Shown here: in pieces, positions 39,230 to 42,725 of the stretch
Position numbering within the stretch: position 1 is the stretch's first letter
Layout: each line of letters opens with the position of its first letter
NCBI GenBank assembly: GCA_019058315.1
Contig: JAHPZH010000002.1
Span: 1,165,910-1,229,909, forward strand
Reading direction: 5' to 3'
Origin: Candidatus Helarchaeota archaeon
GTDB lineage: Archaea > Asgardarchaeota > Lokiarchaeia > Helarchaeales > RDOG01
DNA: 64,000 nucleotides
Program-made: the position numbers and the translations under genes
The notes under the pieces: generated by a model
Database searches by the model: none
Told to the model about the DNA's origin: nothing
Seen by the model: only the letters and a program-made list of their open reading frames with translations

Positions 39230-39973
39230 TTAAGGCACGTTATAATAGGGTGCTTTTTTCATAAATCCAAGAACCATAATTGAAAAACCTGCCAACCAAA
39301 TTATCATAGCTGGCCAAGTCGCATCTGTATAAATTCCAGCTAGTCTAGTGCCCATTTGCCCGAGAAATGAGTGAATAAAATGTGCTATTAGAATTGTTGC
39401 CATACCCAAGCCAATTAGTAGAGGGTATATGTTTGGAAGTCTCTTATGGTAATGACAAAAGAAAAACGTAACAACGAACAAAAGATACATTGGTAGACCG
39501 ATAATGACTAGTAATATGTCCATTAACACGATATTAATAAATGCTGCTATAAGAATTGCAATTTCAGTGAAAACAATCCACCCTAAAACACTGAAAAAAA
39601 TCCCTTTTTTATGGGTTGGAAACCAAACAGCAAGTAGTATTGCAAAATTTAAACCATAAACTACCGTATTCAAATTTAAATCTATTAAATACGCAATTTG
39701 TCCGATAGGACTTTCAATTGACACAGCAGGATAAAATGCTACAAAAAATAATTCAATTGGCGTATAAACACACATTATAATCAATACGAGGGCAAAAATA
39801 AATGGCAAATCGGTATAATATTTTACTTTACCTTTAAACCATTGTCGAAGAAGTATAATTGCACCTATTGGATATAATATTAACCTTCCTATCAATAATA
39901 AAGTTACGAGAAATTGTCCAGTGCTTATCATGAAATCCCACATTTGAATTTTAATGGATCTTTTCAATTTCAA
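39230..39973 (-). CDS. 7-TM membrane protein of unknown function
   Basis: Seven hydrophobic segments. Confidence 0.6.
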   Translation of the reverse strand: MKLKRSIKIQMWDFMISTGQFLVTLLLIGRLILYPIGAIILLRQWFKGKVKYYTDLPFIFALVLIIMCVYTPIELFFVAFYPAVSIESPIGQIAYLIDLNLNTVVYGLNFAILLAVWFPTHKKGIFFSVLGWIVFTEIAILIAAFINIVLMDILLVIIGLPMYLLFVVTFFFCHYHKRLPNIYPLLIGLGMATILIAHFIHSFLGQMGTRLAGIYTDATWPAMIIWLAGFSIMVLGFMKKAPYYNVP

Positions 39974-40245
39974 TATTTAAAGTAATCAAATTAACGAAAA
40001 ATAAAATTAATATATACCAATTTCATTTTAGAATTTTAATAATATTAGCGTAATAGTAAAAATATCTTGGAATTTATAATAAAAAAATGATAAAAATATT
40101 AATCTATGATTCTAAAATCTAAAAATTCGAAATAATTGATGAATATGGAAATTAAAAAAAACAAGTATATACTAATCTAAAAATTTAAATTTGTATCTTT
40201 TATCGTATAGATAAGTTAAACTAATACCAATAAGATGAGAAAAAA

Positions 40246-41562
40246 ATGTCAAGAGAAATTAAAATTGAACCAGTTACCCGTTTGGAAGGTCACGGAAACG
40301 TTACACTTAAACTCGGACCTGGTGATAAAGTTGAAGACGTTCAATTTAATATCACATCAACAAGATTCTTTGAAAAATTCTTAGAAGGCCGACCCGCTGA
40401 ACATGCTCCTCGAATTGTTCCTCGAATTTGTGGTATTTGTCCAATTCCACACCATCTTTCGAGTGTAAAGGCAGTAGAAGCAGCATGGGGTATCACTCCT
40501 CCAAGACCTGCGGATAAATTAAGAGAACTCGAGATCAATGGTAAACAACTTTCAAGTCACGTTCTTCATATAGCTGCATTACAACTACCAGACTTACTTG
40601 CAGGACCGTTAGCTCCTCCCGAAAAAAGAAATGTCGTTGCTGTTATCAATGCTCTACCAGATATAGGAAAGGCAGTTTTAAGAGCAATGAGATATGGTCA
40701 AGATATTTGCGCAATTGTGGGAGGAAAATCAGTTCATCCTGTAACTGGAATTCCTGGAGGTATGACAAAGCCTTTAGCAGAAGATGACAGACAAAAACTA
40801 TTAAAGCAACTCCCAGAGATTGTAGAGATCGGTAAAACCTTAGTTGAGGTTGGAAGCAAACTTGTTAACGACTATATGCTGGTTATAAAGAATTTTGCAG
40901 TCACCCCAACATATTATATCGGAACTGTTAAACCTGATGGTGGTTTAACTATTTGGGACGGAAACATTCGCATAATGGACAAGGAAGGAAAGATTGCAGC
41001 AGAATTTCCAGCGAAAGATTATTTAAATTATTTTGGAGAATATGTTGCTCCTCATTCTATGGCTACACACATGTATCTTAAACAGGCGGGATATCCTGAA
41101 GGAATTTGGCGAGCTAATACTTTAGCACGAGTTAATGTGGCAGATAAAATGCAAACTCCATGGGCACAAGAGCTTTTTGAAGCTTTTAGAAGTACAGTTG
41201 GGCGACCTTGTCATATGACATTTGCTTATATCTGGGCAAGACTTATTGAGACTATCCAAGCTGTGGAAAAGATAAAAACATTGTTGGAAGATCCTGAGAT
41301 TGTATCAACAGATGTAAAATTAGCAGATGTTGAACCGAAAGCTGGTAATGGTGTAGGACAAACAGAAGCTCCAAGAGGTAATCTAATACACAATTATTGG
41401 ACAGATGATAACGGAATTATAACTAAAGCAAACCTTGTAGTGGCAACAAACAATAACATTGGTGGCATTGAATTAACCATAAAAACTGCAGCAAAGCAAA
41501 TTTTCGAAGATAAAATTGTTGAGTCAATAGCTGACAAATTACCCGAACCAATGATTAAGTAA
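40246..41562 (+). CDS. vhuA: Group 3c [NiFe(Se)] hydrogenase large subunit lacking the C-terminal L2 motif
   Basis: IEPVTRLEGHG, L1 RICGICPIPH, EAPRG. No DPCxxC before the stop. Confidence 0.92.
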   Translation: MSREIKIEPVTRLEGHGNVTLKLGPGDKVEDVQFNITSTRFFEKFLEGRPAEHAPRIVPRICGICPIPHHLSSVKAVEAAWGITPPRPADKLRELEINGKQLSSHVLHIAALQLPDLLAGPLAPPEKRNVVAVINALPDIGKAVLRAMRYGQDICAIVGGKSVHPVTGIPGGMTKPLAEDDRQKLLKQLPEIVEIGKTLVEVGSKLVNDYMLVIKNFAVTPTYYIGTVKPDGGLTIWDGNIRIMDKEGKIAAEFPAKDYLNYFGEYVAPHSMATHMYLKQAGYPEGIWRANTLARVNVADKMQTPWAQELFEAFRSTVGRPCHMTFAYIWARLIETIQAVEKIKTLLEDPEIVSTDVKLADVEPKAGNGVGQTEAPRGNLIHNYWTDDNGIITKANLVVATNNNIGGIELTIKTAAKQIFEDKIVESIADKLPEPMIK

Positions 41563-41574
41563 AAGGTGTAAATC

Positions 41575-41730
41575 ATGAATGAAGAAGAATTAATGGAAAG
41601 AAAATTAAACTTAATCGAAATGGTCATCCGCAATTTCGATTGCTGACTTTCGTGCGCTGCACATTTGATCGTCAAAAATGAGAAGGATGAAATAATTTTC
41701 GAGAAAGAGATTGTAATTGGTTCTGGGTGA
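41575..41730 (+). CDS. vhuU: Selenoprotein hydrogenase subunit U, 51 aa (MNEEELMERKLNLIEMVIRNFDCULSCAAHLIVKNEKDEIIFEKEIVIGSG)
   Basis: AGGTG SD. In-frame TGA at 41644-41646 falls in the L2 motif DxUxSCAAH that vhuA lacks. SECIS-like hairpin at the 3' end. Confidence 0.93.
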
Positions 41731-41785
41731 AGTGTTGGCAAAAAACTGAAGTCAACACAGACAGACCCCGCAAGGGTCGAACCAA
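41717..41785 (+). promoter_or_regulatory. Eukaryote-like (K-turn) SECIS element
   Basis: GUGAA (41727-31) and AGAC (41759-62) give tandem G.A pairs. 8-bp stem GUGUUGGC/GUCAACAC with A-rich loop. Outer helix UUGGUUC/GAACCAA. Confidence 0.82.
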
Positions 41786-41796
41786 CTCTTTTTTTT
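41786..41796 (+). terminator. Oligo-T archaeal terminator after vhuU/SECIS
   Basis: CTCTTTTTTTT directly after the structured element. Confidence 0.55.
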
Positions 41797-41837
41797 ATTA
41801 AAAATTATTGTTGAAATTGAATTAAATCGAAATAATT

Positions 41838-42725
41838 TTATGAATTCGTCTTTATTTTAAATAGTTCACAAGCTGTAGTGCCCATTAAAAAAATTCTATC
41901 CTCTTTAGTTATATTATCCCCACTAAAAAATCTAGTTATAGAAGGAAGTTTTATTTTTTTACATAGATTAGTCCATTCTTTAACTCTATTAATTGTGAAA
42001 GGCCAATAAGATCCAAACATTATACGTTTACGATTTCCGATCATAAATTTAATATGTAAAATATTCTGGGCAATTCCCAACTCTGGAATATCCATATTCA
42101 TCGGGGCATAATCTGTATATACGTTTTCATACTTGCGCATTATTGCTATTAATTCATACATAAATGGATAACCGAGTTGAGTGCATAAATTTACTTTCAG
42201 ATCCTGGAATTTATCAAGAACTTTTTCAATAAAATAAGGGTTCGAATTTTGAATTAAACATGGACTTGCAGTGAAACCAGTATGAATAGAGACTGGAATT
42301 TCGTTTTCTTCAGCTATTTTATAAAGAGGAAAGCAAATTTCCTCATCAGGTCGAAAGCCATTTCCTGGATATAATTTTAAGCCACACAGACCTGCATTTA
42401 ATCCTTTTTGAAATATATCAGATGCATTTTTATGACGGGGATCAACACCACATTGCCCTAAAAAAAGATCTGGATATTCGCTTATACATTTTGATACATA
42501 ATCATTATATTTTACTTGAGAAATCGAGGAACCATAAGAAAAATCATTAGTGGATATTATTGCTTTGTCTATTTCTGCTTGTTCCATTTCAACAATGTAT
42601 TCTTTTGGTGTTGCGTTATAAATTGGTTCAATATTATATATTTTACACATATTTTTTATAAAATTACGAGCATTTTGGGAAAGAAACTTTTTCATCCAAA
42701 AATTTATTTGTGCGTCTACAATCAA
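41838..42725 (-). CDS. Amidohydrolase_2 family protein with degenerate metal ligands
   Basis: Fold motifs GLKLYP, VSIHTG, NVYTD, but DAQIN in place of DxHxH and GSYWP in place of GSDxP. Confidence 0.78.
   Translation of the reverse strand: MIVDAQINFWMKKFLSQNARNFIKNMCKIYNIEPIYNATPKEYIVEMEQAEIDKAIISTNDFSYGSSISQVKYNDYVSKCISEYPDLFLGQCGVDPRHKNASDIFQKGLNAGLCGLKLYPGNGFRPDEEICFPLYKIAEENEIPVSIHTGFTASPCLIQNSNPYFIEKVLDKFQDLKVNLCTQLGYPFMYELIAIMRKYENVYTDYAPMNMDIPELGIAQNILHIKFMIGNRKRIMFGSYWPFTINRVKEWTNLCKKIKLPSITRFFSGDNITKEDRIFLMGTTACELFKIKTNS

Follow-up and report, generated by a model that had tools for sequence, protein, structure and literature searches.

The locus described here, vhuA-vhuU of Candidatus Helarchaeota archaeon (Asgard archaea; Helarchaeales, GTDB class Lokiarchaeia), was located on contig JAHPZH010000002.1, within a stretch of 64,000 nucleotides (nt) that is called the window and to which positions refer unless indicated otherwise. 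It comprises a gene for a hydrogenase large subunit, directly followed by a small gene for a selenopeptide, vhuU. The 3' end of vhuU overlaps a folded RNA element (41717-41785), which is very probably the selenocysteine insertion sequence (SECIS) of this gene and a member of the Asgard lokiSECIS or type I eukaryote-like SECIS family. The genes and the parts of the element are the following:

40246-41562, plus strand: vhuA-like gene for the large subunit of a [NiFeSe] hydrogenase (translation; Pfam NiFeSe_Hases, E 1.8e-25).
41575-41730, plus strand: vhuU, a selenopeptide gene of 51 codons, with a selenocysteine (Sec) UGA at 41644-46 (codon 24) and a stop UGA at 41728-30.
41701-41709, plus strand: 5' strand of an additional outer helix, its partner being 41786-94 of the U-tract in the RNAfold structure of 41690-41800, for this sequence alone.
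41717-41723, plus strand: 5' strand of the lower helix, UUGGUUC, within the last vhuU codons (I-G-S-G).
41724-41731, plus strand: bulged strand of the kink-turn-type core, with U24, G25 (position -1b), G26, G27 and U28 (L1 to L3), G29 and A30 (sheared pairs) and A31 (3b); U28 to A30 form the stop codon.
41732-41758, plus strand: upper SECIS stem, 41732-39 pairing with 41751-58.
41759-41763, plus strand: non-bulged strand of the core, with A59 (3n), G60 (2n), A61 (1n), C62 (-1n) and A63.
41764-41778, plus strand: third helix, a side hairpin of the non-bulged strand, GACCC-CGCAA-GGGUC.
41779-41785, plus strand: 3' strand of the lower helix, GAACCAA (RNAfold and covariance-model alignment).
41789-41796, plus strand: T8 tract, by its sequence likely an archaeal transcription termination signal.

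The translated vhuA-like product lacks the C-terminal Ni-binding motif, its frame stopping short of that motif, and the start of vhuU follows after only 12 bases, with an AGGTG ribosome-binding site ahead of it. When TGA is translated as Sec (U), vhuU reads ...FDCULSCAAH, thus containing a D-C-U-L-S-C-A-A-H motif, and continues with a tail of 21 residues that ends in IGSG. This layout is common to 65 distinct orthologues. The Ni-binding motif (41638-41664) has D-C-U and not D-P-U, and the D-C-U form is found in most orthologues too. VhuA orthologues were recovered at E <= 1e-40 from 303 of the 400 Asgard genomes searched. The genome furthermore contains a tRNA-Sec with anticodon tca (C5:127141-127232, on the contig that also carries vhuU), and searches with Pfam and NCBIfam identified a selD gene and three vhuD paralogues that all have an in-frame TGA, so that Sec decoding is available to the organism. 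Neither vhuG nor vhuD is adjacent to vhuA-vhuU in the window, and the upstream neighbour (39233-41562 region) is an unrelated open reading frame (ORF) on the minus strand. In several genomes of f6, the large sister family (L038, L041 and L044 of G269, G154 and G150, respectively), vhuU and its SECIS are not adjacent to vhuA and lie about 1.6 kb downstream, with other coding content between.

The minimum-free-energy structure of 41710-41800 as predicted by RNAfold contains three helices, formed by 41717-23/41779-85, 41732-39/41751-58 and 41764-68/41774-78. They are exactly the helices drawn in an earlier note on this DNA. The upper stem is closed by an apical loop of 11 nt (41740-50), AAAAAACUGAA, which is A-rich and opens with five A. 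The stability of the fold is weak in comparison to shuffled sequences (z -1.95, with 10 of 200 shuffles folding equally well), and the inclusion of 20 extra 5' bases brings the z-score to -2.8. Given that the single sequence folds just marginally better than its shuffles, the case for the element rests on its relatives. The outer helix, in which GAGAAAGAG pairs with the U-tract, was rejected as a general feature, as it was 51% paired in the alignment of these relatives and a per-sequence search recovered 4.4 base pairs (bp) versus 3.9 bp in shuffles.

A split vhuU following vhuA was present at 17 of the first 30 loci, and for 16 of these the element was complete. All of them end in ...GG(N)UGA and continue with the three-helix layout, the helix sequences varying between lineages. 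The 16 orthologous 3' ends were aligned with MAFFT on sequence only, without structural information. RNAalifold recovered all three helices from this alignment, with compensatory changes in 14 of the 18 pairs; standard pairing amounted to 95.4%, as compared to 76.2% after shuffling of the columns and no more than 45% with the pairing partners slid. A second MAFFT alignment, of trimmed elements, was misaligned on the 3' side and left unused. The covariance model that was built from the 16 rows yielded 90 aligned matches, equivalent to 88 distinct rows, which come from the Helarchaeales, from further Lokiarchaeia and from no fewer than four other Asgard families. Within the 90-row alignment 94.9% of the pair cells were standard pairs, versus 64.6% in shuffles (none out of 500 reached 94.9%) and at most 49% in the slid controls, and compensatory changes were observed in 18 of 18 pairs. 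Structural conservation and covariation, the lack of which the earlier note had named as grounds for giving up its proposal, are thus both present. Pairing was highest in the side hairpin (97.7%), followed by the upper stem (eight pairs, 95.7%) and the lower helix (six pairs, 91.7%), with compensatory changes in every one of the upper-stem and lower-helix pairs.

The covariance model scored the window element at 83.5 bits (E 2e-20) and, despite being built from vhuU, it also detected the SECIS elements of VhuD, PrxL and HdrA in other genomes. Among 151 genomes of the same class it matched 102, and among 151 sampled across the phylum it matched 50. The matches fell within families f1, f2, f4-f7, f9, f20, f21 and f31, and no match was obtained in the 17 other families of the phylum sample.

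The core of the element could be defined from the columns of the 88 distinct sequences. The base preceding the bulge (-1b) is a G in 87 of the 88; L1 is G (75) or A (12), L2 is mostly A (77) and otherwise U (8), C (2) or G (1, the window sequence), and L3 is invariably U. On the two sides of the tandem pairs, 1b is G in 87 and 2b A in all sequences, 2n is G in 81 and A in 7, 1n is always A and -1n is C in 87. This amounts to GA_GA in 80 and GA_AA in 7 cases, and the -1b.-1n pair (G25-C62) is G-C in 86 out of 87. The sequence pattern of a kink-turn is therefore found in full, with the G25-C62 pair, the 3-nt bulge G26 G27 U28, and the G29.A61 and A30.G60 pairs, at positions that are invariant or nearly so. 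Directly above, 3b.3n is mostly A.G in the relatives and A.A in the window, and the apical loops of the relatives usually measure 10-13 nt and have an A-rich start. Column counts and covariation thus agree with the kink-turn-type core with tandem G.A/A.G pairs and apical adenines that had been proposed for the locus. More specifically, the proposed 'RUGA' core stands as far as the UGA...GA arrangement is concerned, but its first base is N and not R. Likewise, the junction had been described as a perfect three-way junction; the three-helix layout is real and covaries, but the absence of unpaired linkers is peculiar to the window sequence, because about half of the relatives leave U24-A63 and the seventh pair of the lower helix, C23-G79, unpaired. 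The usual linkers measure 2 nt between the lower helix and the G, 1-2 nt between the C and the side hairpin and 1 nt between the side hairpin and the lower helix.

The third arm is conserved too. Within the 88 sequences the side hairpin has two nearly invariant C-G pairs that are flanked by covarying pairs, and in 87 of them it begins at a distance of 1-2 nt behind the -1n C. Its loop is 5 nt long in 75 of the 88 and conforms to the consensus YGCNN, CGCAA (24 times) and UGCAA (9 times) being among the variants. Of the genes for selenoproteins in the genome itself, all seven that were checked (vhuU, three copies of vhuD, hdrA, a DsbA-like gene with UPWC and selD) are followed by the three-helix layout, with GCAA in the side loop of six. 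The combination of lower helix, upper hairpin and 3' side hairpin was also seen behind the PrxL, VhuD and HdrA genes of other genomes. The elements of vhuU, hdrA, the DsbA-like gene and one vhuD copy were located with a descriptor that itself required the side hairpin, and are as such circular with respect to the third arm; for this reason the selenoprotein genes were also sought independently, via Pfam and NCBIfam, which provided selD and the three vhuD paralogues. A looser descriptor, consisting of core plus stem, had no discriminating value (666 matches in this AT-rich genome). The strict motif NCCN-YGCNN-NGGN has 12 occurrences genome-wide, of which just the vhuU copy is at a SECIS, because the side-hairpin stems differ between genes.

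Taken together, the alignments show that the full conserved shape is a predicted three-way junction, in which a GC hairpin with a YGCNN loop follows 1-2 nt past the core in a k-junction-like topology. The third arm may act as a protein contact, as a tertiary contact or as an element that fixes the kink. That the Asgard SECIS is a k-junction in which the third arm, with its conserved YGCNN loop, is an essential and as yet unmodelled determinant, for instance as a docking site for an archaeal SECIS-binding factor or as a strut that fixes the kink without SBP2, is a possibility that we put forward tentatively and consider less probable than its opposite. The main texts of PMC4989117 and PMC11227280 do not describe the third helix, figures and supplementary figures being outside this comparison. 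A review from 2026 does not mention it either, and the literature that links SECIS with 'three-way junction' or 'k-junction' yielded nothing relevant. The conserved third arm and its reading as a k-junction are therefore apparently unreported, and represent a modest refinement. One of the vhuD paralogues, with two in-frame UGA codons, is followed by an element (C11:387936-388006 of the same genome, minus strand) that keeps the three-helix layout and lacks the UGA...GA kink-turn core. It has an ACCC/GGGU lower helix, a 9-bp stem with an A-rich loop and a side hairpin with an AAUGCAA loop.

The UGA of the core (41728-30) is the stop codon of vhuU, exactly 84 nt after the Sec UGA. It ends the reading frame in all 65 distinct vhuU elements, which bears out the earlier proposal that one and the same mRNA uses UGA for Sec and for stop. 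Of these 65 genes, which span several Asgard classes, 62 have a spacing of 84 nt between the two UGA codons and the other three one of 96 nt. The last residue of vhuU is almost always Gly, whose codon GGN supplies the -1b G, L1 and L2. As L2 is the third base of this codon, its variation is synonymous, and it varies freely. During the maturation of [NiFe] hydrogenases, including the processing of VhuU of Methanococcus voltae, the C-terminal tail after the His is removed. The codons that overlap the element encode this cleaved tail, which can thus carry RNA constraints, and we infer that such embedded constraints are tolerated in the propeptide tail behind the His of UxxCxxH. In the hdrA gene of the same genome (C3:41494-41576, minus strand) the frame (…SIKRE-stop) is likewise closed by the core UGA of the SECIS, so the position of the stop within the core is not restricted to vhuU in this genome.

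Given these features, the following mechanism can be proposed. The folded element at the 3' end of the vhuA-vhuU mRNA would present the kink-turn-type core (the G-C pair, the 3-nt bulge and the tandem G.A/A.G pairs) together with the A-rich apical loop, and would in this way direct the Sec-specific elongation factor, so that the UGA 84 nt upstream is read as Sec and yields the Ni-ligating Sec residue of the hydrogenase. With the Sec UGA in the ribosomal A site, the lower helix would start 73 nt downstream and the SECIS would be intact. Once the A site holds the core UGA, the 5' strand of the lower helix and the bulged strand would already be within the ribosome, and the next ~10-12 nt, the 5' strand of the upper stem, would reside in the mRNA entry channel, the length of which is ~10-12 nt. 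The SECIS would then be dismantled, and the core UGA would consequently be read as a stop. Unwinding of the lower helix would begin when the A site of a leading ribosome is ~61 nt past the Sec codon, at which moment a trailing ribosome could occupy that codon. The geometry thus allows the suggestion in the earlier note that a terminating ribosome, by melting the SECIS, could gate Sec insertion by those that trail it, and such gating is possible.

The assignment to the lokiSECIS family follows from the comparison with published elements. The lokiSECIS was defined by an AUGA, a 9-bp stem, an A-rich loop of 11 nt and a GA, and was recognized as eukaryote-like (Mariotti et al. 2016, PMC4989117). 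In VhuU.1 of that study the AUGA motif doubles as the UGA stop, and the argument that the closeness of the SECIS precludes recoding of the terminal UGA was made there as well. An analysis that covered over 400 genomes of Asgard archaea (Huang, Xiao and Zhang 2024, PMC11227280) allowed [A/G]UGA_[G/A]A, an upper stem of 7-15 bp and an apical loop of 8-20 nt; it reported that UGA stops often overlap the AUGA motif and described a lower stem specific to frhA, [U/C]GG_C[C/U][A/G]. The SECIS type, the kink-turn reading, the overlap with the stop and a lower stem are therefore all published (PMC4989117, PMC11227280). The window element shares the gene family (VhuU/FrhA) with these and is likewise placed at the end of the coding sequence, starting within the last 4 codons. 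It has an NUGA...GA core of which the UGA is the stop, a stem of 9 positions (8 Watson-Crick pairs and A.A) and an 11-nt loop that begins with the five A, and its lower helix fits the frhA lower stem (UGG/CCA). It differs in having GA where AA was reported for the VhuU of Loki, and in carrying a conserved side hairpin, placed between GAC and the lower stem.

Several points weigh against the SECIS assignment or against parts of it. The window element has GUGA, in contrast to the 'always AUGA' of the 2016 set, although GUGA is permitted by the [A/G]UGA of Huang et al. Furthermore, the window loop ends in ...UGAA, thus with an A as last base, whereas the 2016 consensus has an ultraconserved G that usually comes after an A; the last two loop bases of the relatives include AG (26), GG (25) and AA (10). 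Rfam gave nothing at gathering thresholds across the window, and its SECIS models had no match in 41500-41900 even at E <= 10, where just chance matches to unrelated families appeared. The 90-row alignment was fitted to the model, which is mitigated by the 16-row alignment made with MAFFT only. The kink-turn and k-junction geometry is deduced from sequence pattern and secondary structure, and a single conserved pair is all that the canonical (C) helix has ahead of the junction. The fixed spacing of 84 nt may reflect the length of the peptide tail instead of an RNA requirement. Finally, we know of no experimental evidence of Sec insertion, RNA structure or protein binding for any Asgard archaeon.

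Four other explanations for the observed structure were considered. The first holds that the SECIS consists of core, upper stem and apical loop only, and that the lower helix, the side hairpin and the U-tract form a 3'-end module, for termination or for protection against 3' exonucleases, with no role in recoding. In fact, the T8 tract lies 3 nt after the lower helix, the U-tract of the window can pair with upstream purines, and all these SECIS elements are found at gene and operon ends. In most relatives the 30 nt past the element are rich in pyrimidines (65% on average), with a T-run of at least 4 in 50 of 84; runs of at least 5 are present in just 30 of the 84. Archaeal termination requires oligo-T and does not need a hairpin, which argues against such a function for the side hairpin. 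The side hairpin is also not next to the T-tract: 10 nt separate it from T8, which is not the arrangement of an intrinsic terminator, and a consensus scan gave no plus-strand site here. Moreover, its 97.7% pairing, the YGCNN loop and the two conserved C-G pairs exceed what stability would need, and it sits at a fixed distance of 1-2 nt behind the invariant core GAC. Considering all this, we deem a separate 3'-end module rather unlikely. A composite origin seems quite improbable. In this view the side hairpin, with the lower helix closing it, would be a remnant of the euryarchaeal (methanogen-type) SECIS or its equivalent, and a kink-turn arm would have been added on the 5' side. The three consecutive C-G pairs of the side hairpin do resemble the GC-rich upper stem of euryarchaeal elements, and in 3.4% of the Asgard selenoprotein genes a euryarchaeal-like structure was reported to lie just 3' of the eukaryote-like one (PMC11227280). 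These structures may be occasional sightings of the side hairpin, but they were judged probably non-functional by Huang et al. The GAA_A bulge that defines the euryarchaeal type is missing, as the junction strands read GACA and nothing. In addition, the VhuD SECIS of the Methanococcales carry AUGA and GAC/AAC motifs (PMC4989117); the AUGA and GAC flank the main archaeal stem, which hence corresponds to the upper stem and not to the side hairpin.

The remaining two explanations concern the fold as a whole and the stop codon. The marginal z-score of the single sequence and the coding nature of the 5' strand of the lower helix could be taken to imply that coding constraints and chance produced the fold as a by-product. 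This is virtually excluded by the covariation, since every one of the 18 pairs shows compensatory changes, non-coding 3' strands included, and the same layout recurs in the pure 3' untranslated regions of other selenoprotein genes. It is very unlikely, too, that the core UGA is decoded as Sec or read through, which would extend VhuU. The frame does stay open for 27 codons after the core UGA, and an ORF of another Asgard genome (L060) ends in U, but the transcript probably ends at the T-tract ~60 nt later, and a ribosome has to unwind the SECIS in order to reach the core UGA. Moreover, the frame ends on this UGA in 65 of 65 orthologues, and what follows is constrained as RNA helices and not as codons. 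A vhuU SECIS with the stop codon in its core thus remains the preferred reading.

The matches of the covariance model included elements in other contexts. In one relative from the same order (G123) a second, weaker copy of the whole element (43.9 bits) is present ~200 nt downstream of the vhuU SECIS (L004:3268-3363; also L036:1790-1885). It is preceded by just 15 open codons that resemble the vhuU tail (…EIQTGSG), and looks like a tandem duplicate of tail and SECIS without the Sec-bearing part. In family f31 (L089, L093, L094, L095 and L096) three-helix SECIS-like elements are located 28-53 nt downstream of a gene that ends in …ADTKDGPTWKM, which we read as a CysRS-like C-terminus. No in-frame UGA is present in the last 420 or more codons at L089 and L094-L096, and the open frame at L093 has 75 codons with one UGA. 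In family f6, SECIS elements follow very small hydrophobic ORFs with GGGU-P..C or GGGUGC (L103:442-495, L104:1301-1354 and L109:1301-1367), which are candidate small membrane selenoproteins on the basis of their sequence. Finally, the element at L060:1501-1587 (G261) lies behind a small zinc-ribbon-like ORF (CQTCG…CNNCEK…), the frame of which ends in UGA directly followed by TAA.

The Asgard SECIS elements are of interest as the proposed link between archaeal and eukaryotic Sec decoding. In this respect the locus is a Helarchaeales example of the published vhuU SECIS with the stop in its core, and the headline is confirmatory; the interpretation in the earlier note is partly supported, being right in its main lines and largely published. 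What is gained is at the level of the family: the conserved unit, found behind vhuU, vhuD, hdrA, PrxL, DsbA-like and selD genes, is a predicted three-way junction whose core, G-C / NNU / GA...GAC, is invariant and whose third hairpin carries a conserved loop. As current tools and Rfam miss the Asgard elements, this unit gives better search models. It also offers a concrete target for binding and structure work and a sharper view of the changes between Asgard and eukaryotic SECIS. If the third arm were indeed essential, its loss would have been a step towards the eukaryotic SECIS.

Compared with the eukaryotic SECIS (RF00031), the window element has in common the A/GUGA...GA non-Watson-Crick quartet of the kink-turn type, the unpaired apical adenines, a lower helix and the action at a distance on an upstream UGA. 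It differs by an upper stem of ~9 pairs versus 12-15, by the overlap with the coding sequence and by the third helix, which sits in the 3' strand of what would be the 'internal loop'. The genome contains only two genes of the L7Ae family (C5:287009-287287 and C10:156062-156328), and no SBP2 is reported for the Asgard archaea (Mariotti 2016, PMC4989117; Sun 2021). With the euryarchaeal SECIS of Methanococcales and Methanopyrus it shares the location in the 3' untranslated region near the stop and the families VhuU, VhuD and HdrA. The two differ in that neither hairpin of 41717-41785 has a GAA_A bulge, the core being of the tandem G.A kink-turn type. A close structural parallel to the complete unit is the k-junction, as defined by Wang, Daldrop, Huang and Lilley (2014, PMC4005666) and represented by the TPP riboswitch. 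As in a k-junction, the third helix of the window element emanates from the non-bulged strand and the non-canonical (NC) helix after the tandem G.A pairs is kept, whereas the third helix is set off from the core by one conserved G-C pair plus 1-2 linker bases, and the role would be in recoding and not in ligand binding.

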